Shown piece by piece: positions 14,112 to 59,433 of a stretch of DNA of 64,000 nt (position 1 is the first letter of the stretch; each line of letters opens with the position of its first letter). The DNA lies in contig OY970368.1 of assembly GCA_963718615.1 (NCBI GenBank), positions 1,088,001-1,152,000 of the forward strand, read 5' to 3'. This stretch comes from an uncultured cyanobacterium (GTDB taxonomy: Bacteria; Cyanobacteriota; Cyanobacteriia; PCC-9006; JAAUQQ01). The translations under genes and the position numbers were made by a program. Below the pieces are notes generated by a model that saw only the letters and a list, made by a program, of their open reading frames with translations, ran no database searches and was not told where the DNA came from.

Positions 14112-14984
14112 TTAATCGATCGAGATTTTCTGAGGACTACCATCCATGGGGGGCGGCTGGGTTTCGTCAATTTTGCGATAGTCGAGGTAGAGCTGATCGC
14201 GCCAGTTGAAAAACGCCGCGTAGGCCGGATCATCGGCGAGGCCAGGTATGCCCCGATCCTTCAGCGGCAGGGGAATATTCAACGCCGGACTGGAGGGGAA
14301 CTTGATGTACATGCTCAACCCCGCCACGGCAAAGTCCGCCAGCGTGGGATGGTGGGTCACCAAATAGGGCTTTTCAGACAGCAGAATGCTGAGCGCTTCC
14401 AGGTTTTGGGCGAGGTCGCGCTTCGCTGATTTGACTGCATTCGACCCAAACCCCGCCACCGTGCCGCCAATGCTGAGCAATTCGCCAGGAACGGCACCGA
14501 CCATATTTTTCACCACCGTGGGCACCCCATTGGCAACCATGCTGCCCAAGCTCCGGACGGAATCCGGCATGCCGTTGACGAGGCTTTGGATCGCGTCTGG
14601 GGTTTGTGTGGGGAAGAACGCCTTGCGGAACTCGGCATCCTGGTTAAAGGCTCCGATCATTGCGGCTCTGCCATTGAGGGCGATGGAAGCATCGGCCCAT
14701 TCTTCTAGCATGAGCGTCAGGGCGCGGGCCTGGGCATCAAGGGGGAGGATCGGTTTCTCGGGGTACTTTTTGTCGAGGTAGAAGGCGATCGCCGTCGAAT
14801 CCGCAATCACATCATTTCCATCCTTCAACACCGGCACCTGCCGCTGCCCCGACATCCGAAACAGGTCGATTTGCCCTAACCCTGGTGTCACTTCGATTTT
14901 GCGATAGGGCAGGCCCTTGTAGTCTAAGATCAACCGCACCTTTTCGGAGAAGTGGGATAGCTCGAATTGGTATAGCTCTAGCAC
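14112..14984 (-). CDS. Glutathione S-transferase family protein
   Basis: LYQFELSHFSEKVR, QVPVL, IADSTAIA, PTLADFAVA. Confidence 0.9.
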   Translation of the reverse strand: MLELYQFELSHFSEKVRLILDYKGLPYRKIEVTPGLGQIDLFRMSGQRQVPVLKDGNDVIADSTAIAFYLDKKYPEKPILPLDAQARALTLMLEEWADASIALNGRAAMIGAFNQDAEFRKAFFPTQTPDAIQSLVNGMPDSVRSLGSMVANGVPTVVKNMVGAVPGELLSIGGTVAGFGSNAVKSAKRDLAQNLEALSILLSEKPYLVTHHPTLADFAVAGLSMYIKFPSSPALNIPLPLKDRGIPGLADDPAYAAFFNWRDQLYLDYRKIDETQPPPMDGSPQKISID

Positions 14985-15109
14985 TGTTTTTCTGCCCTTG
15001 CGTCTATAGCTTTATTCAAGAAGAAGAACTCCTCTTTGTTTTCCATCCTAGGGGAGATAGCCAAAGAGCAGGACAAATCTCGGCAAAAGCGCCCAATTTG
15101 GGCCATGGC

Positions 15110-15964
15110 CTAGGGCTGGATGCGCCGTTCCTGGACGAGGGTTACGCTTTCGCAGTCGCCGCTGCTGCTGTAGCGCCGGATCAGCCGCTGCCGCTGATTG
15201 GGCTCCACCATCCAGCCTACTTCCAACCCAAAGGACTGACCGGCGCGCACTTCCAAGGGACCATGGGCGGAAGCACCGCCGGGGAGCATCAACACCTGTA
15301 TGGGCAGCGGACCTTCGTCAAAGAGCAGGCGTGGGCCGTCGATTTTGGCACTGGAGGTGAGGGTGAGGGTGCGATCGCCAAAGGAAAGGGTTTGCTGGAG
15401 GCGATCGCCCTGGTGTTGTAGAACTAACTGGCTGGCGATCGCCTCAGAAATCCGCCCATCCGGATCGATCGAAAGACTTTGCCCCTCCCAGGTCCCGAGC
15501 AATTGTTCCAGGGTGAGGGGCGGACTGGCAGTTGCCCCAGAACCGGCCTGGGTCTCGCGGATCAGCGTCATGCCCTTGAGACTGCTGGTCCCGTTACCTA
15601 AGCCTTCGTAGAGCAGCACCAATCGCACCCGGCGATCGGGCGTAGTCAGCGCCAGCTCCGCCCCACTCTGGGAAAAATGGCTCCAATAGGGAGACCCCTG
15701 GGCAAATGCGCCGGTCTCAAAGAACGGAACCGCAGCGCCGGGACCCGGAGGACGAAACTCTAGGACCATTTCCTGGGGCAGTTCACCCAGCGGGGTGCGG
15801 GTGAGGGCGAGTTTGACGCTCTGATCGGGTTGCTCTGTCAGCCGCAAGACGCTAGGCGTATCGCTGAGCGGCCTTCCATCCGGAGAAAATTGGGTAAAGG
15901 AGCCGCGCCATTCGCCGAGATTGGCTTTGAAGCAGTCCCACTGAGATTTCATAACGGATTCCAA
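15110..15964 (-). CDS. DUF3598 family protein
   Basis: MKSQWDCFKANLGEWRGSFTQFSP; RQRLIRRY. Confidence 0.85.
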   Translation of the reverse strand: MESVMKSQWDCFKANLGEWRGSFTQFSPDGRPLSDTPSVLRLTEQPDQSVKLALTRTPLGELPQEMVLEFRPPGPGAAVPFFETGAFAQGSPYWSHFSQSGAELALTTPDRRVRLVLLYEGLGNGTSSLKGMTLIRETQAGSGATASPPLTLEQLLGTWEGQSLSIDPDGRISEAIASQLVLQHQGDRLQQTLSFGDRTLTLTSSAKIDGPRLLFDEGPLPIQVLMLPGGASAHGPLEVRAGQSFGLEVGWMVEPNQRQRLIRRYSSSGDCESVTLVQERRIQP

Positions 15965-16015
15965 ACGCTGGAGGTCAGCTTTGATGATATCGCTGAGCCG
16001 GGGCCGATGCGGGAC

Positions 16016-16375
16016 TCAATCCCCCGAACAGCCCGTCGCCCGCCCCAAATAGGCTTGATAAACCCAACCCCGAGCACCACTGTTCGTCGAAACCTGGGAC
16101 CATTGGCCGGAGCGGTCGGACTGTTCGACCCAGACAGCGGTTCCAGCGGGCAGATCGCCAATGATTTCGCCGTTGGGTTGCGATCGCACATTCAAAACCG
16201 AATCTCGAGACACTTGAACGGTGTGGAAATTGGGGGGACAGTTGCTGGCGATCGCCTGCTGGGCACCGCCCAATCCCTGCACCCGTCCGGGTCGATTGGG
16301 GGATAACAACAGACAAGTCAAGCCAACAACCATAAGGGCGGTTTGAAAGTACTGAGAAACTTTGTCTTGTGGCAT
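16016..16375 (-). CDS. SH3b-domain secreted protein
   Basis: Hydrophobic N-terminus; LNVRSQPNGEIIG...GWVYQAYL. Confidence 0.75.
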   Translation of the reverse strand: MPQDKVSQYFQTALMVVGLTCLLLSPNRPGRVQGLGGAQQAIASNCPPNFHTVQVSRDSVLNVRSQPNGEIIGDLPAGTAVWVEQSDRSGQWSQVSTNSGARGWVYQAYLGRATGCSGD

Positions 16376-16620
16376 GGGTCTAGGCTCTGGTCTAGGTTAA
16401 GCATTGTCTCAGGGAAGACGGCAGCCAGAGAATTGCCGGGCAGATGGGAGGGATGCAGAGGATATGATGCTGACACTCAAACGGCACATCGAGTTTTGGG
16501 GCGCTCCCTAGCCTCTACAAAGCGCCTCTAGATGATTCCAAAAACTTTGCCTGTACCTTAAATTACGCCTTCAATAACGCCTCAAAATACACCTTAAATT
16601 TCCTCAGTACCGTCCCGAGC

Positions 16621-17460
16621 CTAGGCGGAACCAATCACCCCCACCAGGGGAGAACTCGCGCTGGCATAGGCTTTCACGGGGATCCGACCCGCTTGGTAGG
16701 CGAGGCGACCGGCGATGGTGGCGAGACCCATGGCCTGGGCCATGGCGGCGGGGTTGGTGGCTTGGGCGATCGCCGTATTAATCAACAGCGCATCCGCTCC
16801 CATCTCCATGGCCTGGGCCGCCTCACTGGGGGCACCCAACCCCGCATCGACCACCACCGGGATCGCAGCATTCTCAATGATGATGCTGATATTGGCCGCG
16901 TTCTTAATGCCCTGGCCCGAACCAATGGGTGATCCCAGGGGCATAACAGTCGCGCAGCCAACTTCCTCTAGGCGCTTAGCCAAAAGGGGATCGGCGTTGA
17001 TGTACGGCAGAACGGCAAAGCCTTCTTTCACCAGTTGTTCTGCCGCTTGCAAGGTCCCAATGGGGTCGGGCAGGAGATATTTTGTGTCGGGAATGACCTC
17101 TAGCTTGACAAAGTTGTTGTCCTCTTGGCCGAGGAGTTTCGCCATTTCCCGGCCTAGCCGCGCCACGCGGATGGCATCTTCGGCGGTCTGACAACCGGCG
17201 GTATTGGGCAGCATCCAAATTTTGCTCCAGTCTAGGGCTTCCGCCAACCCCTCGTGGCCTGCCGCATTGGTTTGCACCCGCCGCACGGCAACGGTGACTA
17301 TTTCACAGCCGCTGGCCGCAATGCTCTGGCGCATCTCATCAAAATTGCGGTACTTGCCGGTGCCGGTCATGAGGCGAGACCGGAAGCTACGACCGGCGAT
17401 GACGAGGAGATCGTCGGTGGCTTGGGCAGGACTTGGAGTGGGGCGATCGAGCGTTTGCAT
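16621..17460 (-). CDS. thiG: Thiazole synthase
   Basis: [42 protein letters not shown]. Confidence 0.97.
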
Positions 17461-26082: not shown

Positions 26083-26529
26083 TTACGATTCACGAGTTTC
26101 CAAGGTTGCGGTTTTGGAGGTTACGGCTGGGGTTACAGCTTTCGAGGCGATCGCTTGCTTCACACCGGCCAGTTTTTTATCGATGCCTTTTTCGACGAAG
26201 TAGCCCGTGAGGAACGTCGTTACAGCAGAAAGCACCACCGGGCCGAGGATAAAGGCCAACAATCCATGGACTGCAAATCCGGGAACCAGCAGCGAAGCCA
26301 GCCAGAAACAAACGCCATTGATCACGAGGGAAAAGCTACCCAGCGTCAGCAGATTCACTGGCAAAGACAGCAACGAAATCACCGGCTTTATAGTACCGTT
26401 GACCAGGCCCAGCGATAGAGCCGCAGCCAAGGCGGCTGGAAAGGTTGCGATACCAACACCAGGGACAGCCAAGTCAACAACCAGGAGGCTGAGGGCCGTA
26501 ACGAGGGTGGTCAGAAAAAATCCCAACAT
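26083..26529 (-). CDS. YvlD/4-TM phage-holin-superfamily membrane protein
   Basis: GLVNGTIKPVISLLSLPVNLLTLGSFSLVING. Confidence 0.88.
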   Translation of the reverse strand: MLGFFLTTLVTALSLLVVDLAVPGVGIATFPAALAAALSLGLVNGTIKPVISLLSLPVNLLTLGSFSLVINGVCFWLASLLVPGFAVHGLLAFILGPVVLSAVTTFLTGYFVEKGIDKKLAGVKQAIASKAVTPAVTSKTATLETRES

Positions 26530-29607: not shown

Positions 29608-31041
29608 CTAAGGCGATTCCGATAATCTCGTGAATCCGTATTCCTGTTTAGCATTGCGCTGGACCTTGAGCAAAATCGCTTCTCCGGTGCGATCGCCCGT
29701 GGGCAAAAATCGCACATCCTCCCCCGCCCCTCGGGCTACAAAATCCGGACGGCGCAGTTGCTGTTGCAGCGTGCTACGAGTTAGGGGTTGTTCCGGGGGG
29801 ATTTGGCGGAGGGCTGTGGCGATCGCCTGAGTCGCGTCAAAGGACGTCGCAGTCCGCCAAGTCAACGAGGTATCGCCCCACCGTTGCGCAGCCCGCGCCA
29901 AAAAGGAAGTTGTGGAATCCGGATTGGCGTACCAAGGGGCGGTGACGACCAAGTCTTTTATGCTGTCATTTCCCTGCTTTAGAATCGTACTGTTATACAT
30001 CGTGGGGGAACCCAAGAGTGCCAGTTGTCCCTGGGCCGCTTGGGCCAGGCGAATAGCCCGATCCGGATAGTCCACATGGGGCGCAATTAACATTGCATCC
30101 GCCCCCTTGGTTAAGGCAACGTTAACCTTGTCTTCCCCAGGCAATTGAGGTTCAGACAGATCACAGCTAATCGGCAGAATTTGTGCTTGCAGTGCCGTTG
30201 CAGCTTGGACGAATTCTGCTTGAAATGCGACATTGTCCGGTGCTTTGGAGTCAACACAAATCAAAAAAATCTTTTGATTGGCTGACTGAACCGAATAGTA
30301 GGCTAGGCTTTCTGCCAGCGTTTTTATATTAGGAATAGTGCGAAAAATATAGCTACCAAATCCCGAAAGTTTCCCTGAAAATCCCGTGGGTGCAATCATC
30401 ACAACGCCAGCATCCTGATACACTGCTGCTGCCGCGAGGGAAGGACCACTGGCATTCGACCCAATCACAGCTAGAATTTGGGGATCTTGGGCAATGGTCT
30501 GGGCGATGGTTGCAGCGGTATTGGCATCATTGTTGTCATTGGCGATGACAATTTCCAGGGGAATACCATTAATCCCTAAATCTCTACTCTGGTCTTGGGC
30601 CTGGGCAACGCCACGCAACATTTCAGCGGCGATCGCCGGATTATTCCCAATGGGTACACTGACCGCAATGCGTAGGGGATGTGCATCGCCTTTGAGACGC
30701 GATCGCGCATTATTCAAGTAAATATAAGCCTCCGGATCATCCGGTTCTTGCAGCAACGAGGTCTGAAACTTCTCGATTGCGGTCAAATAATCTCCTTGTC
30801 TAAAGGCTTGCACTGCCACCTTTTTCGCCGCAGTAGGAGATTGAAATAAGAGGTCTTCACCGAGGCTGATCTGGGGATTTTGGGCCTGAGCTCCAGGCAG
30901 TTCCGAGAAGAATTTCTGCGGTGAGAAGAGCCATTGCAACATCCCCAGAACCAGCAATACTAAAAGGAGCGATCGCCCCCAACGTTTGTGATAGTCTTGG
31001 GGTGGGCGTGACAGGATCGGTGCGTGAGTCTGAATGGACAT
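29608..31041 (-). CDS. Membrane-anchored LivJ-type (class I) periplasmic ligand-binding protein with TPR-like N-domain
   Basis: One TM, DPEAYIYLNNA, LRGVAQAQ, ILAVIGSNAS, YIFRTIPN, WRTATSFDA. Confidence 0.88.
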   Translation of the reverse strand: MSIQTHAPILSRPPQDYHKRWGRSLLLVLLVLGMLQWLFSPQKFFSELPGAQAQNPQISLGEDLLFQSPTAAKKVAVQAFRQGDYLTAIEKFQTSLLQEPDDPEAYIYLNNARSRLKGDAHPLRIAVSVPIGNNPAIAAEMLRGVAQAQDQSRDLGINGIPLEIVIANDNNDANTAATIAQTIAQDPQILAVIGSNASGPSLAAAAVYQDAGVVMIAPTGFSGKLSGFGSYIFRTIPNIKTLAESLAYYSVQSANQKIFLICVDSKAPDNVAFQAEFVQAATALQAQILPISCDLSEPQLPGEDKVNVALTKGADAMLIAPHVDYPDRAIRLAQAAQGQLALLGSPTMYNSTILKQGNDSIKDLVVTAPWYANPDSTTSFLARAAQRWGDTSLTWRTATSFDATQAIATALRQIPPEQPLTRSTLQQQLRRPDFVARGAGEDVRFLPTGDRTGEAILLKVQRNAKQEYGFTRLSESP

Positions 31042-31064
31042 CTTTGGAGTTTCCTTACTGGAGT

Positions 31065-32525
31065 CTATTGCTGATATTCTCGTAGACGTAGTTGTATCCC
31101 CACAGCCGTCAAACCCATGATGATGATCCCCCCAACAGGCAGTTGCCAGCGTAAGGCTTCCAGGGTTTTGGAGGCGGAACCGATGGATTGGTCAAAGGCC
31201 GCTAGCTGGACCTCTAACAGCTTTTGATGGGCGTCGCGAAACAGCTCGAAGGAACCGTTGAGTTGATCGATCTGGTAGCCCGTGGCGAGGGCGATCGCCT
31301 CTTGTTTTCGTCCCTGCTGATTAAACCTATGAATCGTCTCGTAATGCTGTGAGTAGGTTTTTAAAGCCTTTACGGTTGTCTCAACCATGGCCTGTTCTTC
31401 TTCCGTTTTCAGGCTTTGAGCCACTGAGCCCAATAAATCTGAAAAGATAGGCTCGAAGGAATAGCTAGCGTTACTCACTGCGTCGATGGTCGATAGGGAT
31501 ACAATTTGATTGAGCTTTAGTCGGAACGAAGTATCGTATTGCAGTGTTTTAACCGGATCGAGCAGGGCTCGGCTGACGTCTGCATGGGCACTGTAGGCCA
31601 GGGTGCGGATTGTGCGTAGATCGACCAGGGCGGCAAAGGTGTCGGATTGGGCTTGGGCGATTTGGGTGGCGGCGGTGTCGAGCGATCGCAACGTATGTAC
31701 CCACAGCCCCAAAGCCCCCAGCATGGCGCTGAACAGAAGCGGATGGAGGACCCGGCGGGTGCGCTGGCTCAAAAACCATTGCACCGAAACCAAATAGCCT
31801 AACAAGCCTACACCACTGAGAATGAGGCCGACCCTTGTGGTATGAATTCGAGCTTGCTGAAGTCGTTCAGCTCGGGCAAGCTGCTCGGCTTTCACCTGTC
31901 CCAGGGCACGGGCGGCGGGTAAAAGCTGTTGGTCCAACTGCTGGAGTGAGGCCGCATAGGCTTTAGCGGTTTCAGCCGCGTTATCTTGCCCATGCCAGAC
32001 TCTAGCCCGCTCAATCGCCATCAGATAGTCTCCCAGACCCAGTTGTAGCATCGTCACCGGTCGCAATTCCGGGTTGCCATAGGAGAGTTTGCTAATGATT
32101 TGGATCCAGTAGTTGGCGAGTTTCTTTTGACGAACGTCGGCTTCTTGTCGCGCAGCTTGGTTTTGGCCGGGGGGGAGCAGCAACTCATTGGCTAAGCTCG
32201 CATCTAATGCCGCTAGACTATCCTGAATTCGCAAGGTAGTAAGCATGCTCGGGGCAGAATCCTCGGCCAAAAGGCGCAGAGCGGTCTGCTGTTGCCCCAT
32301 GGCGATCAGTCCCAGGGCAACGGTAAAGAATGTGGTCCCACACACTGTATAAAGACCAAGCTTGAGCCATTGCGGGGTGGAAAGCTGTTGGGCGCTGGTT
32401 GGGATGGGATTGGGCAGCGTGAGGACAGAACGGTCTGCGGTGACAAAGGGAGCAAGTTTACCGAGTTTCTCAAGCAACACGTTCAAGCGGAGATGGCTTT
32501 GGAGGCGAGATCGAATCAGGGTCAT
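31065..32525 (-). CDS. GlnX-like 4-TM protein with two periplasmic helical domains
   Basis: Topology TM-periplasmic-TM-RTRRVLHP-TM-periplasmic-TM ending RLREYQ; resembles recalled actinobacterial GlnX motifs. Confidence 0.7.
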   Translation of the reverse strand: MTLIRSRLQSHLRLNVLLEKLGKLAPFVTADRSVLTLPNPIPTSAQQLSTPQWLKLGLYTVCGTTFFTVALGLIAMGQQQTALRLLAEDSAPSMLTTLRIQDSLAALDASLANELLLPPGQNQAARQEADVRQKKLANYWIQIISKLSYGNPELRPVTMLQLGLGDYLMAIERARVWHGQDNAAETAKAYAASLQQLDQQLLPAARALGQVKAEQLARAERLQQARIHTTRVGLILSGVGLLGYLVSVQWFLSQRTRRVLHPLLFSAMLGALGLWVHTLRSLDTAATQIAQAQSDTFAALVDLRTIRTLAYSAHADVSRALLDPVKTLQYDTSFRLKLNQIVSLSTIDAVSNASYSFEPIFSDLLGSVAQSLKTEEEQAMVETTVKALKTYSQHYETIHRFNQQGRKQEAIALATGYQIDQLNGSFELFRDAHQKLLEVQLAAFDQSIGSASKTLEALRWQLPVGGIIIMGLTAVGIQLRLREYQQ

Positions 32526-33232
32526 GGCGATTCTTGAAGGGTGACGGTAAGACGAGTCCAGTGGCCCAGGGTAAAACTATCGCCGCTGTGGAGGGGATAA
32601 TCTTGGAGTGGGGTTAAGGGTTGTCCCCGCAAGTAAGTGCCGTTTGAAGAGCCTAAATCCCGGAGGACGAGGATTTGCTGAGGGTGAGGCGTCAAGAGGG
32701 CATGGCGCTGGGAAACGGCATTGTCAAAGTCCAAGGCGATGTCTGGATAGATGGCTTTGGTTGGGCTGGTGCGTCCGATGAGTGTGGGACCCGGCTGGAG
32801 GGCAAGGGGCTCGGGATTGCGATCCGGGGGAGCAGGGGAGAGATTTGGGTCCCAGAGGCTGGGGTCGATGCTGAGGGTCAGGGTCCAGTGGGATATGGAT
32901 TGTTGTTGGGGGGCCGTACTGGAAGCGGATTGGGGAGCGGGTTGAGGAGTGGATTGGGGAGCGGATTGAGAAGCCGATTGACTGAGGCTAAAGTTGTAGC
33001 CACAAACTTCACAAAACTGGCCCCAGGTCATTTGATGGAGGCTGGTGCAATCGGGACAGGCGATCGCCTCCTCCATCGGATCCTCCCGCTTCTCTTCAGG
33101 CGGGTCTGCCAGAGGCTCCGCATCGGCGATGGTCTTCAGTTTGAGTCCACATTCTGAGCAAAAGTCAGGCTCAGTGGATGGATGGCCCTGGGGACAGGCG
33201 CGCGCAGGTGTAGAGGCAAGAGGAGAAGACAT
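32522..33232 (-). CDS. Zinc-ribbon + FHA domain protein
   Basis: CPQGH..CSEC and CPDC..CEVC; FHA motifs IGR, VSQRHA, DLGSSNGT. Confidence 0.9.
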   Translation of the reverse strand: MSSPLASTPARACPQGHPSTEPDFCSECGLKLKTIADAEPLADPPEEKREDPMEEAIACPDCTSLHQMTWGQFCEVCGYNFSLSQSASQSAPQSTPQPAPQSASSTAPQQQSISHWTLTLSIDPSLWDPNLSPAPPDRNPEPLALQPGPTLIGRTSPTKAIYPDIALDFDNAVSQRHALLTPHPQQILVLRDLGSSNGTYLRGQPLTPLQDYPLHSGDSFTLGHWTRLTVTLQESP

Positions 33233-33262
33233 AGGAGGCAAGAGCGCAACAACAGGCAGGGG

Positions 33263-34564
33263 TTATGAATGGGCGGCAGGGGTTTGCAGACGGGTGGTTT
33301 TGACCGAGCGAGTTTCCAGGGCCATGGCATCGGCCTTGGCGATATCGCGACGGAGCTTAACCGTGCCCGTGGCGGCGTCTTCGACTTCGACGATTTTGTG
33401 GAGGAGTTTGGCAGTGGCTTCGTTGCCGGAGGTTTGGGCAAGCTGGACAGCCCGACCGAGCTTAGCGGTGGCTTCTTCGAAATGACCGCGATCGCGTGCC
33501 TCCAGTCCCTGCTGAATGGTATCGGCAAGTTCCGCTTGGCCGGTGTAGTGGGCGACGCGACGATCGATTTTAGTGGATCGGGATTCATCATCGGTCCAAA
33601 TGGCGAGCACCTTGGCTTCGGTAATTTTGACTTCGTCGCCCTGGACCAAGCTGATCAAACTGGCCCGACCGGCTAGCATTTCATCCCCCACTTTGCCGGG
33701 CTGGACCTGTAGGCAAAAATGGTAATCGCGGGATTCACTCGTACCCCAGGCACCGGTCGGATAGTCACGCGTTTGGGGGTTAGACAGCGTCGCTTTATCC
33801 GTTAAGTCCATTAATTCGGGACTAACCTGTTTACAATACATCACCTCAGCACCACGGGGGGTCCAAAGCCGCAGCCGAATTTCCCGAATCGATTTTTGAG
33901 CGGCGCTACCCAAAATATCCAGAAAATCCTCAGCCATCTGTTCGGGCTCCGGGATAATGTCGGTGGTGCCGAGCAGTTTCTCCGCGATGGTTTTTAGTTC
34001 TTTGACCCTCCAATCTGTGCCAACGCCTCGACAATGGCACTGAAATTGGCCTTGGCAACGGTCTAACAGGGTTGCCAGGGCCTCCTCATCGGAGGCATCG
34101 TTTTGACCATCCGTGAGCAACAGGGCTTGGCAAATGGCGTGGGGTTGTTTGGCGAACTCTTGCTGGGCAGCGTCGAGCCAAGTGGAAATGCGAGTACTGC
34201 CGCTGGCGCGGATTCTGCGGACTTTGGCGATCGCCTGTACCTTCTCTGTTTCTGAAGCCGCAACCATGGGCACCAAAACTTGACTATGGCCTGATCCCAA
34301 AATCACAAAAAATGACGCGCTGGATGGCAATAATTCGATGGCCTGGGTCAAAGCCTTCCGAGCCGCCGCAATTTTTTCACTCCCCATGGAGCCAGACACA
34401 TCGCAAATCATGCCAAAGAGTAAAGGCGTATCAAAGACATCGCTGTTCGATGCTTCCAAACTTTCCCCCCCGCTGCTGACGGTCATAATCGCATGGACTT
34501 CTTGGCTTTGCTCGGGAAGGTAGGGATTTTGAAAAACTTCAGCGGTAAACGTGGTTTGGGTCAT
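33263..34564 (-). CDS. vWA domain protein
   Basis: MIDAS DVSGS, T in STRIS, LLTDG; C-terminal HYTGQAELA...LETRSVKT. Confidence 0.92.
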   Translation of the reverse strand: MTQTTFTAEVFQNPYLPEQSQEVHAIMTVSSGGESLEASNSDVFDTPLLFGMICDVSGSMGSEKIAAARKALTQAIELLPSSASFFVILGSGHSQVLVPMVAASETEKVQAIAKVRRIRASGSTRISTWLDAAQQEFAKQPHAICQALLLTDGQNDASDEEALATLLDRCQGQFQCHCRGVGTDWRVKELKTIAEKLLGTTDIIPEPEQMAEDFLDILGSAAQKSIREIRLRLWTPRGAEVMYCKQVSPELMDLTDKATLSNPQTRDYPTGAWGTSESRDYHFCLQVQPGKVGDEMLAGRASLISLVQGDEVKITEAKVLAIWTDDESRSTKIDRRVAHYTGQAELADTIQQGLEARDRGHFEEATAKLGRAVQLAQTSGNEATAKLLHKIVEVEDAATGTVKLRRDIAKADAMALETRSVKTTRLQTPAAHS

Positions 34565-34594
34565 GATGGTTTAGGAAGTGGTTTAGGGAATGGT

Positions 34595-35575
34595 CTAGGG
34601 AATAGAAATTTGTAGTAACGCAGCGCTGATATTGTCGTGGCCCCCTTGGCTGCGGGCAAAGTCGATCAGCCGTTGGGTCAGGATCGCTGTGGGGGGAGCG
34701 GCAGTCTCAGCAGCCTCTGGACATTCGGACCGTTGGAGGAACTGCCACAGGTGCTCCGGCTCCGGCGCGTAGTTCCAGAGACCATCGCTACACAGCAGCA
34801 CATAGCCTGACCCTGGCAGTTCAACGGTGGTAAACTGCGGCGGAAATTGGTGAAAATCCGCATCGGCTCCAAGCCAGCGCGTCAGTTGATGGTGTTGCAC
34901 CGAGTCGCTGTGGTCCTGGGTGATTTGATACCCACCCCTTGAGGAAAGCCAATAGGCCCGACTGTCGCCGAGCCAACCAACCGCTAATTGGCGATCGCGC
35001 ACCAAAGCCGCGACGACCGTGGTTGCTGGAACATTGGATTCCCCCCGAGCGAGATCGGTGACGGCGGTCTGGGCTTGAGCCATGGCCGGTTCCAAAAGCT
35101 CAACTAAAGGCCTATCCGTCGCCGTTGCAGAAGTTATCTGATTTTGTAAGACTTGGCTAATCGTAGCGACGGCGACCTGAGCTGCGAGCTCCGCACGGCT
35201 GGCACTGCCGATACCATCACAAAGAATGAGTCCCCAATAGGCAGGCTGGGCGGCTTGGGCCGGTTGGTTGAGCAGGGCAATGGCGTCTTGATTGAGGCGA
35301 CGACGCAAACCGCGATCGCTCAAGGCCGCACAGCGAGATGACAGTTGCAGTTGCAGAGGCGGATCCTCAGGCATTGAGCGCAAACCACAATCTTGACAAA
35401 AGCCCTCAGCATCCAAGGCCAGTGCACCACAATGGTTACAGGGTTGGGAGGGCAGAGCGGGGGCAGAGCAAGGGGTACCGCAGGTTTCACAGAAGCGATC
35501 GCCCGTAAACAAAGGCGCGTTGCACTGGGAACAAAGATGTCTGAGCGCAACTTGTAGAGGAGGAGGAGAGGTCAT
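34595..35575 (-). CDS. Zinc-ribbon + PP2C (PPM) Ser/Thr phosphatase
   Basis: Four CxxC; NQDA, CDGIG, GDSRAY, CSDGLWN, GHDNIS. Confidence 0.92.
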   Translation of the reverse strand: MTSPPPLQVALRHLCSQCNAPLFTGDRFCETCGTPCSAPALPSQPCNHCGALALDAEGFCQDCGLRSMPEDPPLQLQLSSRCAALSDRGLRRRLNQDAIALLNQPAQAAQPAYWGLILCDGIGSASRAELAAQVAVATISQVLQNQITSATATDRPLVELLEPAMAQAQTAVTDLARGESNVPATTVVAALVRDRQLAVGWLGDSRAYWLSSRGGYQITQDHSDSVQHHQLTRWLGADADFHQFPPQFTTVELPGSGYVLLCSDGLWNYAPEPEHLWQFLQRSECPEAAETAAPPTAILTQRLIDFARSQGGHDNISAALLQISIP

Positions 35576-35620
35576 AGACAAGGACGGAATGGCAGAATGG
35601 GATTTAATAACCGAAGCAGG

Positions 35621-36481
35621 CTACACCCAGGTCAACGGACGGATTTGATTGGCTTGATCCACGAGCCAAGTCCGTTCTAAACCGGCACTCAACCGGGCCA
35701 GGGAGCGCAGGGTTTGTTCGAGGGCTTGTCGCAGGTCGAGGATGGTGAGCCGACATTGACTTAGGCGGATGTCAGCCCGTTCCGGGAGGTGCTGGTTTTC
35801 GAGCAGATAGAGGGCAGTATTCAGCAACAGATACCGCTGTCGATGGGCTGCTTGGGGATCAAGGGTGATCTGGGCTAGGTAATCCGCTGCCGCTTGCAAG
35901 TCCTGTAGGGTGGGGAGAGAAGGTTTGAGTTGTAGATGGATCTGGACCATGTCGAGGCGCGATCGCCCATACAACCTTGACGTGGGTGGAATCTGCTGAA
36001 GGACTTGCAGGACCTGAGTGCGAACCTGTGGAAAATTCTTTCCGAATGGTTCTCCAGCGGCAAGGGCACACCGAGCCAAACCACAGGCAGCCGCTTCATA
36101 GCGGACATCGGTTTGCAAGACACGATGATAGAGCCTCAGGGCTCGGCTCCAGTTTTCAGTCAGTTCTGCGACTTGGGCCAAAGCCAGTTGGGGGGCTAAC
36201 TCTCCCGGTAGGTGATTGTAGACCTGCTCTAGCAAGGGTTGAGCTTGTAGGGCACGTCCTTTCAACAGCCGCAGTTGGGCTCGCTGCCAAGCCACTCGCC
36301 AGTCCGCAGGCTGATTAACCGCACACCGGTTCAAAAGCTGTTCAGCGGGGTTGAGATCAGCTTGGATCATGAGCAGTTGACTGCGCAGCAAAAGCGTAGC
36401 CTGGGAAGTGGGAACCTGCTGACTCAATCGCTTGAGCTCCTGGAGTTGCTGGGCGGAATCGGTCAGGCTCAGCAAGGGCAA
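35621..36481 (-). CDS. PknG-type C-terminal TPR domain (separated from kinase by frameshift)
   Basis: DWRVAW, LPGELAPQLALA, LVDQANQIRP, matching the PknG TPR tail. Confidence 0.8.
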   Translation of the reverse strand: MPLLSLTDSAQQLQELKRLSQQVPTSQATLLLRSQLLMIQADLNPAEQLLNRCAVNQPADWRVAWQRAQLRLLKGRALQAQPLLEQVYNHLPGELAPQLALAQVAELTENWSRALRLYHRVLQTDVRYEAAACGLARCALAAGEPFGKNFPQVRTQVLQVLQQIPPTSRLYGRSRLDMVQIHLQLKPSLPTLQDLQAAADYLAQITLDPQAAHRQRYLLLNTALYLLENQHLPERADIRLSQCRLTILDLRQALEQTLRSLARLSAGLERTWLVDQANQIRPLTWV

Positions 36482-36488
36482 GATGGCG

Positions 36489-37781
36489 CTATAGGCGGGG
36501 TCCTTCTGGGTCTAGCAGAAGCGTGGGCAGCCGGTTTGGGGCAGATCGTTGGGCGTCATCGGGCACAAAGTAATGGCTGCGGCTAGGAATGGGCTGTCCC
36601 GTTTCCTGGGCCACGACCTCCCGCAGGACTCCCGCCAGTTGCTCTGCCATGTCTTCAGCGGACTGAAAGCGCTGCGCTGGCTTCTGGGCTGTGGCCCGCT
36701 GCAAAAAGCGATAGAGCGATTCTTGCTGGGCAAACAGCGGTACTTGGTCCGGCGTGGGCAGGCGATCGCGATTCCGCTCACTAAATTCCGGGATGACCGC
36801 TACCAGCACCGCCAGCGTCCGCCCCACGGTAAACAAATCCGAGGCAGGCGTAGGTCCCGCCCCCGCTTCTGGCGCGCTGTACCCCACGGTACCGTAAATA
36901 TCCCCCTGGGGATCATCAATGCGACGCACCGCCCCCATATCAATCAGTTTGATGCTGTTTCCTTCTAGCATCAGGTTGTCGGGCTTAAAATCGCAGTAGA
37001 CCAACCCTTGATTGTGAAGATAGCCAAAGGCTCCGAGGATACCGTGGATGTAGGCGATCGCCTCCGCCACCGGCAGAGGACCGCGCTCCCGCCGCAGTTG
37101 ACGCAGGGTTTGTCCCGCCACATATTCCATCACAATCAAGCCTTCGCCGCCGTGGGTCACAAAGTTGTATACCCCGACAATGTTGGGATGCTTGACCGCT
37201 GCCAGAAACTGCCGCTCCGCTAAGGCCACCGCCGCACTGGAGTCATCTTCGCTATTGAGCAGTCCCTTGAGAACCACGTAGCGAGAGAGGACGCGATCGA
37301 ACCCAAGATAAATCCAGCCGAGTCCCCCGTAGGCGATCGCCCCCTTCACCTCATACTGCTCCGCCACCACATCCCCAGCCCTAAGACTGGGCACAAAGGA
37401 ATAGCGATGGCCGCATTGTCCACAAAAACCGCGATCGCGACGCACCGGATGATCGCAGTGGCCACAGAAGCGTTTGTGAGCCGGTACGCTGGGATCTTGC
37501 AGAAGCAACGCTTCGGGATCGCGAGCGGGCAGAGGGGGCAGGGAAACCAGTCCCAGGCCGAGTCCTCCGCTATTGCGGGTGCTGGTGTTTCGGGTGCTGG
37601 TGTTTCGGGTGCTGCTGAGAGAGATGGAACCTGGATCGCTAGAGACGGTCGCGCCTAGTGTAGAAACCAATCTAGGTTGTTCGGCAAGACCACAGCAGTT
37701 GCAATAGCCCTCTTCGAGAATACCGGTGCATTGGGGGTACTGACAGCGATCGCCATCCATCGTAATTGCTCCTAAATTCAA
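36489..37781 (-). CDS. pknG: PknG-type Ser/Thr kinase (Zn ribbon, rubredoxin-like domain, kinase domain)
   Basis: KRFCGHC..FCGQCG..YSF, IAYGGLGWIYL, VVLKGL, ERQFLA, YCDFKPDN (non-RD), IDMGAV, YGTVGYSAPE. Confidence 0.85.
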   Translation of the reverse strand: MNLGAITMDGDRCQYPQCTGILEEGYCNCCGLAEQPRLVSTLGATVSSDPGSISLSSTRNTSTRNTSTRNSGGLGLGLVSLPPLPARDPEALLLQDPSVPAHKRFCGHCDHPVRRDRGFCGQCGHRYSFVPSLRAGDVVAEQYEVKGAIAYGGLGWIYLGFDRVLSRYVVLKGLLNSEDDSSAAVALAERQFLAAVKHPNIVGVYNFVTHGGEGLIVMEYVAGQTLRQLRRERGPLPVAEAIAYIHGILGAFGYLHNQGLVYCDFKPDNLMLEGNSIKLIDMGAVRRIDDPQGDIYGTVGYSAPEAGAGPTPASDLFTVGRTLAVLVAVIPEFSERNRDRLPTPDQVPLFAQQESLYRFLQRATAQKPAQRFQSAEDMAEQLAGVLREVVAQETGQPIPSRSHYFVPDDAQRSAPNRLPTLLLDPEGPRL

Positions 37782-37857
37782 TCGGTTCTTTGCTGAATGG
37801 GGCTAAAAATTAAAATAAATAGACCGACTAGAGTTCAAGCTCTCTAGAGCTAGAGAG

Positions 37858-38763
37858 CTAGCGATTGAGCTGCTGCTCATACTGCTGCGTCCACAATTCC
37901 ACTTCGTCAAGGGGTGTCGGACGGCTATAAAGACCTTGCTCTGCGCACTTCGCCAATTGGCAAAGCTGAGGAATTTCGATTTTTCCCTTGGCTTGGGCCT
38001 TGGCTTGAAGGGCCTGCAATCGGCCTCGTAATTCTTTCCGTAGGGCAAGGTCCCGTTTATAGCAGGCCAAACTCGATTCGATCGCCTCAACCACTGGGGT
38101 GAAGGCTTGCTGCCAGGTCAATAATGCTTCTCGTGCATGGGGCAACTGACTCAGTTGCTCCAACTGCTGTTGGAGATTCAACAGGGTTTCCTCGGAGGGA
38201 AACAAGGGAGGGCTGTGGCGATGGATTTTAGTTTGATATTCCCGTTGAAGGATAAGGGCATCGGCATAGCGATCGCGACAGCTCAACCACCGCTGGCGAC
38301 AGTCCTCGATCGCCGCTTGCAGTGCTCCCACTTCCTCCCAATAGGTAGTTTCCCACTGGTCCAAGGCTTGCCAAAGCTGTTGATGCCCCTGAATCAGGCG
38401 CGAGAGCAAGGTTTCGGGTAGAATCCGCTCGCCTGAGGGCAGATCAATGGAGGGTTCGGTCAACAGAGCTGCAACTGTTGCCAGAGCTGTTTTTCCCAAT
38501 AGCGGTTGGTGTTGTTGGCGATGGTTCTGGGCGCGATGGAGAAAATTGATCAAGCAATCGAACTGTTCAAACAAAGCCTGAGATTCGCTCAGCAGGGCTT
38601 GGCCAGTGGGGTCAAGGGTGGCAGAGGCCGTTCGACTCAGTGCCACCAAGCGTTGATAGCTGGGCAAATCATCAAAACGCAGCAGCGCTTGGCTCATCAC
38701 ATCCACCCGCTGCTGCCAGTCCATCAGCAGGCGATCGATTTGTTCAACGGTGGCTATCACCAT
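37858..38763 (-). CDS. Helical/coiled-coil hypothetical protein, first gene of the PknG operon
   Basis: Helical composition; C-terminal RKELRGRLQALQAKA...LYSRPTPL resembles, from recall, the protein preceding PknG in actinobacterial clusters. Confidence 0.75.
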   Translation of the reverse strand: MVIATVEQIDRLLMDWQQRVDVMSQALLRFDDLPSYQRLVALSRTASATLDPTGQALLSESQALFEQFDCLINFLHRAQNHRQQHQPLLGKTALATVAALLTEPSIDLPSGERILPETLLSRLIQGHQQLWQALDQWETTYWEEVGALQAAIEDCRQRWLSCRDRYADALILQREYQTKIHRHSPPLFPSEETLLNLQQQLEQLSQLPHAREALLTWQQAFTPVVEAIESSLACYKRDLALRKELRGRLQALQAKAQAKGKIEIPQLCQLAKCAEQGLYSRPTPLDEVELWTQQYEQQLNR

Positions 38764-40714: not shown

Positions 40715-43465
40715 ATGGATCTGATTCTCTGCCACACCACCGCCGATTTCGACACCCTCGGAGCCGCTGTCGGGATGACCCAGCTCCTGCCTGGCGCTCG
40801 CATTGTTTTGACCGGCGGAGCCCATCCCGCCGTGCGCGATTTTCTGGCGCTCCATCGTGACGAATATCCCCTGATCGAACGCCGCGCCGTCAAGCCAGAA
40901 CAAATCCGCACCCTGGTAATCGTCGATGCCCAACAGCGATCGCGCCTCGGAAAATCCGCCGAATGGCTTGATCTCCCCCAAGTCGATCGCATTCTGGTCT
41001 ATGACCACCACCTGGATAGTGATTGTGATCTAGCCTCCCCCCCCCAACCCGAGACCCATTGCGAATTGCAAATTGAAGCCGTGGGGGCAACGACGACGTT
41101 GATCGTTGAGAAATTGCGATCGCTCAACCTCAACCTCGATCCCTTTGCCGCCACCGTCATGGCCCTAGGGATTCATGTGGATACGGGGTCCCTCACCTTT
41201 GCCCATTCCACCCCTCGGGATGCAGAGGCGATCGCCTGGTTGATGCGCCAAGGTGCCCATGTGGATGCCCTATCAGAATATATCGACCCCGGTTTCTCCA
41301 CCGAGGTACAAGGGGTTCTTAGCCAGGCGTTGGAACATTTGGGGACCGAAACCTACCACGGTCAGGCGATTTCGCGGGTACTGTTACCCGTCCAGGGATA
41401 TATCGGTGGGCTATCGAGTTTAGCGTCGGAACTGCTGGCGCTGACGGCGAGCGATGGGGTGCTCCTGGGGGTCTATTATCCCGTCGGGGAAGACGAGCAG
41501 GAGGTGCGGCTGACGGTGATTGGGCGATCGCAAATTGAAGGTCCCAATCTGGGCCAGATCTTTCAGCGTTGGGGCGGCGGAGGGCACGCCAAGGCGGCGG
41601 CGATGACGCTGCGCGGGGTTGAGGTAGAACCAATTTGGCATGAAATCTGGGAGTTGTTTCATCAACAAATTCCGGAGCCCCTAACCGCCAGGGATTTGAT
41701 GTCTTCGCCGGTACGCACGGTGCGGCCCGATACGCTGATCGAAGAGGCCCAGCGGATTTTACTGCGCTATGGCCATTCGGGGCTGTCGGTGGTGAATGAC
41801 CAAGATGCGTTGGTGGGAATCATTTCACGGCGGGACTTGGACTTGGCGCTGCACCATGGGTTTGGCCATGCGCCGGTCAAGGGCTACATGAGCCGCAATC
41901 TCAAGACGATCGCCCCAGAGGCTGGTTTGCCAGAAATTGAGCAGTTAATGGTGACTTACGATGTGGGGCGGCTGCCGGTGTTGGAGGCAGGACATTTAAT
42001 CGGCATTGTCACCCGTACCGATGTGCTGCGGACCCGCTACCAGGGAACGCTGGCCACCGAAGCCCAATCCACGAGTCCAGAGTTTCCTAGCCCTGAGCCG
42101 ATCAACGCACAACTCAAGGCTCGCCTGCTGCCACAACTCTGGCACCTGCTGGAAACCGCTGCGGCCTATGCCCATCACCGGGGCTGGCATCTTTATTTGG
42201 TGGGTGGCGGCGTGCGCGATCTGCTATTGGCGGATCCCCAGGAGCCATTGTTGCTGAGCGACGTTGACTTGGTGGTTGATGGCTTTCATCACTCGCTCAC
42301 AGAAGCCGCCGGGGTTGAACTGGCCACAGCCCTGCAGCAGACCTATCCGGCGGCTCGTCTGGAGGTGCATGGCAAATTTCAAACCGCAGCGCTGCTTTGG
42401 CACAATGACCCGATGTTTCAGTCCCTTTGGATTGATGTGGCAACGTCCCGCACGGAATTTTATCCCTATCCGGCGGCGAATCCTGAAGTGGAAGCCAGCT
42501 CGATTCGACAGGATCTCTATCGGCGGGATTTCACGATTAATGCCTTGGCGCTACAACTGACGCCGCCGCGAACCGGTGCCCTGCTAGATTTTTTTGGGGG
42601 ATTGTTGGACTTGCGCGATCGCCTCGTGCGAGTCCTCCATGCCAACAGTTTTATCGAAGACCCCACCCGAATTTATCGAGCGGTGCGATTTGCCGTGCGA
42701 CTGGGGTTTGCCATTGAGCCCCAGACCCGTGAATACATCACCTACGCGCTGGATAGTGGGGTGTATGAACGGATTCAGGGGGAAAATGCGATCGCCCCCG
42801 CCCTCCAAACCCGTCTCAGGGCGGAGCTAGAATACATCCTCGAAGCGGGCTACTGGCAAGCTGCCCTAAAGTTGCTAGGAGAACTCGATGCCCTACGCTG
42901 TTTGCACCCGACGCTACACCTGACGCCAGCACTGTGGAAACGAATTCGGTTAGTGAATCGCGGTATTCAGCGGGTGCAGCAGCCCCCAACGGAAACACCG
43001 TTGACCCCTTGGCGAATGCGGCTCGAAGTGTTGCTGGCAGAACTCCAGCCGGACTATCGCGGCATCGTTGCCCACAGGCTGCAGCTTCCCGCTGATAGCA
43101 TTCGGCGGCTAGAGCATCTGGCCACCGCTCACAGGGCTGTCCTCACCTCACTGCAACAGGCGCAACGTCCGAGCCAGATTTATCAAAGCCTGCTGCCCTA
43201 CGATGTGCCCACCCTCATGTTGATTGCAGCCCACTGTGATGCAGAGCCTCGGCGTCAAATTTGGCAGTATCTCACCCGCTGGATGAATGCCAAACCGCCC
43301 CTAGATGGCACGGATCTGAAGGCGATGGGATATAAACCGGGTAAGCAGTTTAAGGTCATGCTGGACTGGGTGATGGCGGTTTATTTGGATGAGGAACTGA
43401 GTCTGTTCCCCACGGAGCTCAAGCAGCACCTGCAACAGCGCCTACAGCAGCACTATCCGCTTTGA
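40715..43465 (+). CDS. DHH/DHHA1-CBS-tRNA nucleotidyltransferase (likely A-adding enzyme)
   Basis: YDHH, GGGGHAKAA, CBS pair, LYLVGGGVRD, DVDLVV, RRDFTINA, SFIEDPTRIYRA. Confidence 0.92.
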   Translation: MDLILCHTTADFDTLGAAVGMTQLLPGARIVLTGGAHPAVRDFLALHRDEYPLIERRAVKPEQIRTLVIVDAQQRSRLGKSAEWLDLPQVDRILVYDHHLDSDCDLASPPQPETHCELQIEAVGATTTLIVEKLRSLNLNLDPFAATVMALGIHVDTGSLTFAHSTPRDAEAIAWLMRQGAHVDALSEYIDPGFSTEVQGVLSQALEHLGTETYHGQAISRVLLPVQGYIGGLSSLASELLALTASDGVLLGVYYPVGEDEQEVRLTVIGRSQIEGPNLGQIFQRWGGGGHAKAAAMTLRGVEVEPIWHEIWELFHQQIPEPLTARDLMSSPVRTVRPDTLIEEAQRILLRYGHSGLSVVNDQDALVGIISRRDLDLALHHGFGHAPVKGYMSRNLKTIAPEAGLPEIEQLMVTYDVGRLPVLEAGHLIGIVTRTDVLRTRYQGTLATEAQSTSPEFPSPEPINAQLKARLLPQLWHLLETAAAYAHHRGWHLYLVGGGVRDLLLADPQEPLLLSDVDLVVDGFHHSLTEAAGVELATALQQTYPAARLEVHGKFQTAALLWHNDPMFQSLWIDVATSRTEFYPYPAANPEVEASSIRQDLYRRDFTINALALQLTPPRTGALLDFFGGLLDLRDRLVRVLHANSFIEDPTRIYRAVRFAVRLGFAIEPQTREYITYALDSGVYERIQGENAIAPALQTRLRAELEYILEAGYWQAALKLLGELDALRCLHPTLHLTPALWKRIRLVNRGIQRVQQPPTETPLTPWRMRLEVLLAELQPDYRGIVAHRLQLPADSIRRLEHLATAHRAVLTSLQQAQRPSQIYQSLLPYDVPTLMLIAAHCDAEPRRQIWQYLTRWMNAKPPLDGTDLKAMGYKPGKQFKVMLDWVMAVYLDEELSLFPTELKQHLQQRLQQHYPL

Positions 43466-59348: not shown

Positions 59349-59433
59349 TGTAGGTTGGGTTGCGTGCCTTAACCCAACTCGCTGAACCAAAGCAAAGTCA
59401 GTTGGGTTTCGCGTTGCTCAACACCAACCTACA
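59349..59433. repeat. REP-like inverted doublet
   Basis: TGTAGGTTGGGTT...AACCCAAC spacer GTTGGGTT...CCAACCTACA. Confidence 0.7.

Follow-up and report, generated by a model that had tools for sequence, protein, structure and literature searches.

The window analysed here is a stretch of 64,000 nucleotides from the genome of an uncultured cyanobacterium (assembly GCA_963718615.1, contig OY970368.1, positions 1,088,001 to 1,152,000). Between its positions 29608 and 38763 it carries eight open reading frames (ORFs) on the minus strand which encode an extended PknG-GlnX module. In Mycobacterium and Corynebacterium the protein GlnH binds aspartate or glutamate and GlnX relays the signal in a pathway that includes the Ser/Thr kinase PknG. 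We read the cyanobacterial cluster as an operon-like, extended form of this GlnH-GlnX-PknG pathway that works by the mechanism proposed below, and we give this reading a probability of about 60%. What doubt there is concerns almost entirely the inferred steps of the mechanism, and not gene content, gene order, domains or conservation. The module itself is real and conserved, and it is found in a phylum without the known target of the pathway. The version present in this genome is marked by a lineage-specific exchange of the binding protein and by a frameshifted kinase gene.

The ORFs are co-oriented, as the initial annotation had stated, and their coordinates also bear out the tight packing: in the order of transcription the intergenic distances are 76, 7, 39, 30, 21, -4 (an overlap) and 23 nt. 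The annotation had counted seven genes. There are eight ORFs, with the kinase and its tetratricopeptide repeat (TPR) domain in separate frames. Every domain that it had assigned was recovered in searches with hidden Markov model profiles, and the catalytic and binding motifs that it called intact can be read in the translations, while its description of the module as complete fails for the kinase gene as assembled. A scan for promoters and terminators found about as many sites as chance would give (7 where 5.2 were expected, and 13 where 11.5 were).

The assignment of the kinase to the PknG family is well supported. ORF2 (36489..37781, 430 amino acids) codes for the N-terminal part and matches PknG_rubred (PF16919) with 53.6 bits at residues 74-133 and Pkinase with 117.6 bits; the Pfam gathering cut-offs are 28.5 bits for PknG_rubred, 27 for PknG_TPR, 24 for PP2C_2, 20.7 for FHA and 27 for VWA_3. 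A DZR match lies at residues 106-126, and the readable CGHC...CGQCG shows a rubredoxin-like domain with two CxxCG motifs ahead of the kinase domain, which in turn retains the non-RD motif YCDFKPDN. Residues 73-408, covering rubredoxin and kinase domains, match PknG of M. tuberculosis (2pzi) with 327 bits (E 1.7e-96) and the match to PknG of C. glutamicum (7mxb) has 229 bits, whereas the next kinase type, the PknB type, reaches 88 bits. ORF3 (35621..36481, its frame being open from 36511; 286 amino acids) codes for the C-terminal part. It matches PknG_TPR (PF16918) with 145.5 bits over profile positions 87-340 of 340, and its only sequence matches in the PDB are the PknG structures 2pzi (7.6e-18) and 7mxb. 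At the N-terminus the kinase has an extra zinc ribbon, followed by a linker rich in Ser and Thr with three STRNT repeats and then by the rubredoxin-like domain. Such an S/T/R-rich linker between zinc ribbon and rubredoxin domain was found in every kinase of the extended type compared, and the extra ribbon is absent from the three kinases in our tree that come from other loci (two canonical ones and a solo second copy).

The kinase is encoded together with a GlnX-like protein. ORF7 (31065..32525), whose start overlaps the stop of the preceding gene by 4 nt, matches the GlnX family model NF058618 from end to end (positions 2-413 of 413, E 2e-52, 178.7 bits), and an iterative search started from it reaches canonical GlnX (locus L137, 839 bits with NF041460). 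Hydrophobic segments lie at residues 56-76, 230-252 and 461-479, with a weaker one, seen by eye, around 262-278, which would be the third transmembrane (TM) segment. In the AlphaFold2 (AF2) model (pLDDT 90, pTM 0.83) a disordered N-terminal tail precedes two periplasmic four-helix bundles, the helices spanning residues 50-114, 123-145, 151-179, 183-256, 262-322, 324-349, 364-403 and 422-485, with TM1-H1 and H4'-TM4 as continuous helices. The same layout of four TM segments, two bundles and continuous helices has been described for GlnX of C. glutamicum (PMC9769921). Bundle 1 of the model superposes on LytS-N of XylFII-LytS (5xsd, Z 17.6, root mean square deviation (rmsd) 1.4, 120 amino acids) and on MCP2201 (Z 16.9), further on McpS, PcaY, McpN and Tar, and bundle 2 on Vc1313-LBD (Z 13.6) and QseE (9m08, Z 11.1). 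Both bundles in tandem superpose on the TorS sensor (3o1h/3i9w) with Z 12.4-12.6 over 233-237 amino acids, and a Foldseek search of the whole model against the PDB gave no match at E<=0.001. Thus by profile, iterative search and model the four-TM protein is GlnX-like, as had been proposed, and its predicted architecture is that of GlnX. Such fold matches of a model speak for the architecture and not for the partner.

The last gene, ORF8 (29608..31041), had been annotated as a periplasmic binding protein. It is confirmed as such by a Peripla_BP_6 match of 99.9 bits, which makes it a type I, LivJ-like protein; SBP_bac_3 gave no match. A hydrophobic segment at residues 21-42 should serve as membrane anchor, a single TPR motif lies at 79-112, and the solved relatives are amino-acid-binding proteins (4mlc, 3hut, 3td9, 1usg). 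Judged by its sequence family, it is not a member of GlnH, which has the SBP_bac_3 fold with an Asp/Glu pocket, although it may function in the same way. What varies in the cluster is the binding protein: Peripla_BP_6 follows GlnX solely in the family of the window (the window and loci L006, L007 and L008), and SBP_bac_3 proteins were found in the clusters of Kibdelosporangium and Nonomuraea.

In cyanobacteria the module has a patchy distribution. With the GlnX profile three out of seven other genomes of the window's family were matched, and 33 genomes of other families gave one weak match (E 2e-4). PknG_TPR found some match in 123 of 401 Cyanobacteriota genomes, only six of them above 100 bits, and the next best score was 36 bits. 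Besides the window these six comprise four genomes of one other family (f31, 4/46) and one of another class. The proteins of the window map in the same order across all eight cyanobacterial loci that were fetched. In the cyanobacterial genome of the other class the cluster is rearranged; locus L029 has no PP2C match.

For a broader view we used the vWA protein, the best-conserved gene product of the cluster. Among 8000 candidates scored, 6891 matched at E<=1e-10, and those named among the best 120 matches are cyanobacterial (Calothrix, Nostocales, Microseira, Phormidesmis, Stigonema). When one genome was taken per species, a relative is encoded at no fewer than 506 loci; the best 80 of these belong, by record title, to Cyanobacteriota (21), Acidobacteriota (7) and Actinomycetota (52). 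The components were mapped onto these 80 loci by iterative searches. We counted the 53 loci whose flanks measure no less than 6.5 kb on the upstream and 3.5 kb on the downstream side of the vWA gene, and left out 27 with short flanks. All six partners (coiled-coil protein, kinase, TPR domain, PP2C, FHA and GlnX) are present in 45 of the 53, namely in 6/10 cyanobacterial, 2/3 acidobacterial and 37/40 actinobacterial loci. The eight exceptions include two loci from Synechococcales metagenome-assembled genomes (MAGs) with vWA and FHA genes, one also with GlnX, and no kinase within reach. Three Synechococcales MAG loci (L055, L057, L059) have vWA and FHA, and the latter two have GlnX as well; genes for a kinase, a PP2C or a coiled-coil protein are absent from the 10.0, 5.2 and 6.7 kb, respectively, that lie upstream. 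They may represent a reduced or split version of the cluster.

The order coiled-coil, kinase-TPR, PP2C, vWA, FHA, GlnX recurs in all three phyla, so that the synteny which had been named as a test of the annotation is found in many genomes. The glnX gene follows the FHA gene in 8/8 cyanobacterial, 3/3 acidobacterial and two actinobacterial loci, while actinobacteria mostly have it upstream of the coiled-coil gene (35 of 37 loci). Nonomuraea gerenzanensis (NZ_LT559118) has the cyanobacterial order, with a GlnX of 280.9 bits and an SBP_bac_3 gene next to it. The actinomycete loci also contain the Streptomyces-type cluster with coiled-coil, PP2C, vWA and FHA genes, which the initial annotation had given from recall. 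Its notion of a permuted gene order has to be narrowed: it holds only in comparison with the three-gene operon of mycobacteria and with Streptomyces, where glnX is placed differently, and against the extended clusters found in Nonomuraea, Acidimicrobiia and Acidobacteriota there is no permutation.

In a sample of 81 genomes from the class to which a Saccharothrix genome belongs, a PknG_TPR kinase was found in 11, and the context was inspected for ten of these (the eleventh, at a contig end, was left out). Eight of the ten have the extended cluster, in one case cut by the contig end after PP2C, and two have GlnX alone beside the kinase; one of these two textbook-type GlnX proteins is the canonical equivalog (NF041460, 839 bits). 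Of five further actinobacterial genomes three possess a single PknG_TPR kinase, which is that of the extended cluster.

A quick maximum-likelihood tree of the rubredoxin-kinase region was calculated from 73 rows and 440 columns (79 rows minus one fragment and nine near-duplicate Streptomyces rows, plus four generic kinases as outgroup). The only support values are those of the Shimodaira-Hasegawa-like approximate likelihood ratio test (SH-aLRT). The window pairs with its closest relative G003 (98, starred) inside its own family (99, starred), and all 19 cyanobacterial and three acidobacterial kinases form one clade (99, starred) in which the Acidobacteriota are nested among cyanobacteria (92). 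This clade adjoins actinobacterial kinases of the Acidimicrobiia type (92, drawn open). The canonical three-gene kinases form a clade (100, starred) nested among the actinomycete kinases from extended clusters. As had been expected of a PknG, the window kinase stands within the clade of TPR-bearing PknG-family kinases and apart from the four generic ones, although the basal support is weak (75) and the outgroup branches are long. Two further loci, L147 (genome G428) and L148 (G430), carry second, divergent PknG_TPR kinases which sit on long branches; one of these variant clusters consists of GlnX, vWA and kinase, the other of coiled-coil protein, kinase, vWA and GlnX without PP2C and FHA.

The initial annotation had deduced a long residence in the cyanobacterial lineage from the many HIP1 sites (GCGATCGC), and their density supports this. 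The window contains 111 sites against 1.68 expected; the 20 sites within the cluster amount to 2.2 per kb, compared with 1.7 per kb for the whole window. With a density like that of the host the cluster bears the host's sequence signature, and a recent horizontal acquisition was rejected on this ground. Together with the conserved gene order and the 45 complete loci out of 53 this indicates that the cluster is a unit of selection.

The remaining cytoplasmic proteins of the cluster include an eraser and a candidate reader for the kinase. ORF4 (34595..35581) is a PP2C-type Ser/Thr phosphatase (PP2C_2, 63.6 bits) with an N-terminal double zinc ribbon (DZR at residues 17-66, 26.7 bits). Its score of 105.7 bits with the Stp1-type PP2C profile is under the equivalog cut-off, and the motifs NQDA, CDGIG, GDSR, SDGLW and GGHDN are intact. 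ORF6 (32522..33241) combines two N-terminal zinc ribbons (DZR at residues 24-81, 22.8 bits) and a linker rich in S, T, Q and P with an FHA domain (55.9 bits) in which GR, SQRH and SSNGT are preserved, an architecture of zinc ribbon plus FHA that is kept across phyla. It is not GarA/OdhI: the profile NF041660 scores 20 bits against a cut-off of 200 and covers the FHA domain alone, and two zinc ribbons stand at the N-terminus in place of the ETTS phospho-motif. We regard it as the candidate phospho-reader and substrate. The FHA gene of L006, the locus of G003, was matched in two frames which meet near 9306 (about 9290-9310), which would be another frameshift or a MAG error.

ORF5 (33263..34564) encodes a vWA protein with a metal ion-dependent adhesion site (MIDAS), a middle domain and a helical tail (VWA_3 58.3 bits, VWA_3_C 71.2 bits). 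The MIDAS residues DxSGS...T...D (D55, S57, S59, T124, D152) are invariant in 10/10 aligned sequences. In this alignment identities are 59-75% within cyanobacteria and 40-44% to the cyanobacterial genome of another class (G129) and to the actinomycete Nonomuraea; among the best 80 loci they are 45-50% to actinomycetes and 54-57% to Acidobacteriota. The protein matches the solved structure 4fx5 over its full length (E 8.7e-97), and searches of the open literature found no publication or description of this structure.

The first gene, ORF1 (37858..38763, 301 amino acids), codes for a coiled-coil or helical-bundle protein that has no match in Pfam or NCBIfam. Its AF2 model (pLDDT 94.8) is all helical and consists of stacked three-helix bundles. 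Foldseek found no match in the PDB at E<=0.001, and a structure search with VIA-align returned no specific relative but generic helical bundles only; the one near full-length row was EzrA (Z 10, rmsd 8.2), within the range expected of helical proteins. The protein belongs to a large unnamed family: with a profile built from 37 homologues, 2705 representative clusters were matched at E<=1e-3, and at E<=1e-30 there were still 1199, almost all with a length of about 400 amino acids. A protein-atlas search pointed to unnamed actinomycete clusters (0.94) with low recognition and is taken as a lead only. The coiled-coil proteins of the window's family (301-333 amino acids) are about 70-100 residues shorter than the homologues of about 400 residues in other cyanobacteria and in actinomycetes, the result of an internal deletion of the middle part. 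The gene is almost always directly upstream of the kinase gene and is syntenic in three phyla. A complex prediction for kinase residues 73-430, the TPR domain and the coiled-coil protein scored 0.01 against a mark of 0.32, which speaks neither for nor against a contact.

From these components, and by homology with the mycobacterial and corynebacterial system, we propose the following mechanism. The membrane-anchored LivJ-type protein, and perhaps the bundles of GlnX as well, would bind a periplasmic ligand, most likely an amino acid. The GlnX-like protein would relay this signal through the membrane, and the PknG-like kinase would receive it with its TPR domain; GlnX-dependent signalling by PknG requires this domain (PMC8546545, PMC6069109). 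The non-RD kinase would then autophosphorylate threonines of its S/T-rich N-terminal linker, on which the zinc-ribbon FHA protein of the operon would dock, to become phosphorylated itself. This docking model builds on the presence of the linker in every extended-type kinase and on the precedent of PknG in M. tuberculosis and C. glutamicum, where threonines near the N-terminus that the kinase has autophosphorylated bring in the FHA substrate (PMC8546545, PMC6069109). The zinc-ribbon PP2C would reset the switch, and the MIDAS vWA and helical-bundle proteins may be its scaffold or its output. The CxxC...CxxCG ribbons shared by kinase, phosphatase and FHA protein hint at a common docking or redox-sensing element.

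The target must differ from the known one. In this 100%-complete genome profile searches found neither a GarA/OdhI (the best score was 43 bits against a cut-off of 200) nor the E1 component of 2-oxoglutarate dehydrogenase (ODH; TIGR00239), in agreement with the initial annotation, which had expected the target of GarA/OdhI to be lacking. PknG in its functional definition, as the kinase that controls ODH by phosphorylation of GarA/OdhI, is therefore not what this genome encodes, for both substrate and target are absent, and the known output cannot apply. The FHA and vWA proteins must act on something else.

Several observations weigh against the extended-pathway reading. The 178.7 bits of the four-TM protein fall under the NF058618 cut-off of 250, a value exceeded by the proteins at the same cluster position in Dulcicalothrix (285.5), Nonomuraea (280.9) and Streptomyces (515 bits). 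The binding protein comes from another family than GlnH, and in the two Nostocales-type and two acidobacterial loci that were checked (L038, L044, L058, L060) the genes after GlnX are unrelated; as it is missing from these four clusters outside the window's family, it may be a late addition and the ligand class a guess. The roles of the vWA and coiled-coil proteins are inferred from conservation and adjacency only. And the kinase as assembled lacks its TPR domain.

This last point leads to the first of three other explanations, namely that the locus is decaying in this genome: a real frameshift would uncouple the kinase from GlnX, and the module would be inactive or rewired here while it functions in relatives. 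The site lies at 36495..36511 (minus strand), where one extra base, placed at 36504 within CCAGAAGGACCCC, parts the two frames. The kinase frame ends with ...LLLDPEGPRL and a stop at 36489-36491, four codons past this base. The TPR frame is open only from 36511, starting with TQKDPAYSAILPLL. It has no ATG, and its first start-like codon is the internal TTG at 36481. The closest relative, G003, reads through the junction as ...DPEDPAY... (LLADPEDPAYGLMLPLL) in a single frame of 742 amino acids, kinase and TPR domain of G007 share one open frame of 841 amino acids, and the other strong PknG_TPR matches in the phylum sample are all in open frames of 728-803 amino acids. The contig of a near-identical strain (run X1), which differs by 8 other letters in 601 bases, lacks exactly one base at 36504, and with this one base fewer the fusion of kinase and TPR domain is restored. 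The domain is thus present in the window, though in another frame, and it is fused to the kinase in G003, G007, the genomes of family f31 and the near-identical strain. A programmed frameshift was considered and rejected, as the site contains no slippery heptamer and the base is simply missing from the nearest strain.

In favour of decay, PknG without its TPR domain fails to complement in mycobacteria and in C. glutamicum (PMC6069109, PMC8546545). On the other side, it is one lesion only: the other genes and all catalytic motifs are intact, and the assembly is a single-contig one, a kind in which single-base indels are a common error. Separate kinase and TPR ORFs, and a split vWA gene, were also seen in the loci L065 (a Richelia MAG), L053 and L077. 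All of these are metagenome assemblies, which fits an artefact and makes single-base assembly indels a plausible cause. The extra base is either such an error or a recent mutation that would blunt the signal input in this strain. We consider decay of the locus rather unlikely, and for the relatives it would be compatible with the extended-pathway reading anyway.

A second explanation, which we hold to be unlikely, takes the intracellular redox or metal status as the main input: the zinc ribbons would gate activity or assembly, and GlnX would mainly be a membrane tether. It starts from the CxxC...CxxCG ribbons that are common to kinase, phosphatase and FHA protein, as detected with the DZR or PknG_rubred profiles, and by way of which the PP2C and FHA proteins cross-match at their N-termini in iterative searches. 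The rubredoxin domain is moreover the only element for which modulation of PknG's intrinsic activity is known, and it is reported to respond to perturbation of the metal centre (PMC8546545), and the lack of a binding-protein gene in the cyanobacterial and acidobacterial clusters checked outside the window's family would suit an input from within the cell. However, zinc ribbons are common protein-protein or nucleic-acid binding modules as well, the modelled GlnX keeps two well-folded periplasmic bundles of the sensor type, and in the lineage of the window a binding protein was added right after glnX.

The weakest explanation, a conflict or anti-phage module of the TerY-P type in which the kinase senses infection and the vWA and FHA proteins trigger a protective response, can draw on the adjacent vWA-PP2C-kinase triad (many vWA homologues are named 'YegL' by JGI), on the occurrence of such triads in defence contexts (PMC11090510), on the patchy spread (strong PknG_TPR matches in 6/401 Cyanobacteriota genomes including that of the window) and on the signs of cross-phylum transfer in the nested Acidobacteriota, but it is improbable given that PADLOC returned generic kinase-domain matches and a weak PP2C match (E 5.4e-4, 17 bits) and nothing for the other six proteins, that no nuclease or other effector lies in or beside the cluster, that the kinase has a C-terminal TPR domain and N-terminal zinc ribbons instead of the C-terminal zinc ribbon or OB fold of TerY-P, that an extracytoplasmic sensor (GlnX and binding protein) fits nutrient sensing, and that the HIP1 density is host-like. 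The defence output suggested by the initial annotation thus found no support in PADLOC, flanks or kinase architecture.

The flanks of the cluster consist of unrelated housekeeping genes, with a convergent ABC-F ATPase gene on one side and divergent genes for a class-V aminotransferase and a protein of the DHH-CBS-poly(A) polymerase family on the other. The latter (40715-43465, plus strand) is a fusion of 916 amino acids with DHH, two CBS domains and the head domain of a poly(A) polymerase or CCA-adding enzyme. About 3 kb past the 3' end of the cluster lies a small ORF (26083-26529, minus strand) with a match to Phage_holin_4_2 (four TM segments, 96.9 bits). The G+C content is 0.46-0.49 at 2001-8000 and 58001-64000 and about 0.54-0.58 elsewhere in the window, and a strong negative GC skew at 2001-4000 and a strong AT skew at 6001-8000 were noted. 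In the Iningainema locus L044 a protein with a Peptidase_C14 caspase domain and DUF4384 is encoded at 14680-16854, two genes downstream of glnX and after an ATP sulfurylase gene; it is the only conflict-system-like neighbour among the flanks checked.

One may tentatively go further, to a picture we regard as possible rather than probable. The eight-gene cluster would be ancestral, a PknG 'signalosome' of which the three-gene operon known from Mycobacterium and Corynebacterium is a stripped-down derivative. Its core would be a membrane-tethered phospho-switch, with a TerY-like vWA protein and a helical scaffold of the spectrin type as the platform on which kinase, phosphatase and FHA protein, all with the same rubredoxin-like ribbon, come together. 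Cyanobacteria might have acquired the cluster from an actinobacterium of the Acidimicrobiia type, and Acidobacteriota might later have received it from them. Its target in cyanobacteria would be independent of GarA and ODH and could be a step in the carbon-nitrogen balance, and in the family of the window the swapped-in LivJ-type protein would redefine the ligand. With SH-aLRT support only, long outgroup branches and a weak base of the tree, the direction of transfer and the derived nature of the three-gene form are to be taken as inferences.

Published accounts place PknG, one of the best-studied Ser/Thr kinases of bacteria, in a three-gene operon of Corynebacteriales whose output is GarA, and a preprint from 2026 keeps to this definition of the pathway, with an operon of three genes conserved in that order. 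Our results change that picture: the kinase belongs to a conserved eight-gene module in most of the sampled kinase-bearing actinomycetes as well as in cyanobacteria and acidobacteria. Four genes of this module have no assigned role in the PknG pathway, and two of them, those for the helical protein of about 400 residues and for the vWA protein (4fx5), lack a family name or an assigned function. In the open literature we found no description of the extended cluster or of its system in cyanobacteria, most subscription journals and supplements being outside the search. The statement of the initial annotation that it knew of no cyanobacterial description therefore holds for system and operon, while a PknG homologue with rubredoxin domain has been mentioned for Calothrix sp., and for Ktedonobacter, in one sentence and without an operon (PMC8546545). 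The model NF058618 shows that NCBI curators already recognise a wider GlnX family. Cyanobacteria without the known target offer a clean background for finding out what else a PknG system regulates and what the vWA, FHA, PP2C and coiled-coil proteins do, and with this module a ligand-sensing route that runs through a Hanks-type kinase would be defined for the first time in these organisms.

When compared with known systems, the cluster shares single features with several of them. TerY-P triads include YegI/YegK/YegL of E. coli. They likewise have adjacent genes for a MIDAS vWA protein, a PP2C and a Hanks kinase, with zinc ribbons on signalling proteins (definition in PMC11090510). According to the same source their kinase has a C-terminal zinc ribbon or OB fold, whereas that of the window is of the PknG type with a C-terminal TPR domain; the window cluster is furthermore tied to a transmembrane sensor, adds FHA and coiled-coil proteins and is not in a defence-island context. 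The operon DRA0331-DRA0334 of Deinococcus radiodurans unites the same four domain types (vWA, Ser/Thr kinase, FHA, PP2C), and its FHA and PP2C proteins were proposed to be a push-pull pair acting on kinases (bioRxiv 10.64898/2026.01.23.701218). The abstract of that preprint mentions neither rubredoxin nor TPR domains of the PknG kind, nor a GlnX or a binding protein, and the PP2C there carries a KI-FHA domain rather than zinc ribbons.

The sensors TorT-TorS, XylFII-LytS and QseG-QseE resemble the predicted GlnX in their superposable four-helix bundles, and here too a binding-protein gene is adjacent. However, TorS, LytS and QseE are histidine kinases onto which binding proteins dock, while GlnX lacks a catalytic domain and would, as proposed, pass the signal on to a soluble Ser/Thr kinase. 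The unnamed extended cluster of actinomycetes and Acidobacteriota, for example of Nonomuraea gerenzanensis, Streptomyces, Saccharothrix and Bryobacteraceae, has the same families and the same core order of coiled-coil, kinase-TPR, PP2C, vWA and FHA genes. The actinomycete forms mostly have glnX upstream of the coiled-coil gene and an SBP_bac_3 protein, and the coiled-coil protein of the window is shorter than theirs. With the GlnH-GlnX-PknG-GarA/OdhI system of Mycobacterium and Corynebacterium the window has in common a kinase of the PknG family with rubredoxin and non-RD kinase domains and, in a separate frame as assembled, the PknG TPR domain. Both also have a GlnX-family protein encoded alongside the kinase, a binding protein in the periplasm and, as the likely reader or substrate, an FHA protein. 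It differs from it in the additional N-terminal zinc ribbon of the kinase, in a binding protein of Peripla_BP_6 instead of SBP_bac_3, in an FHA protein that is not GarA, and in four extra conserved genes, those for the coiled-coil, PP2C, vWA and zinc-ribbon FHA proteins.

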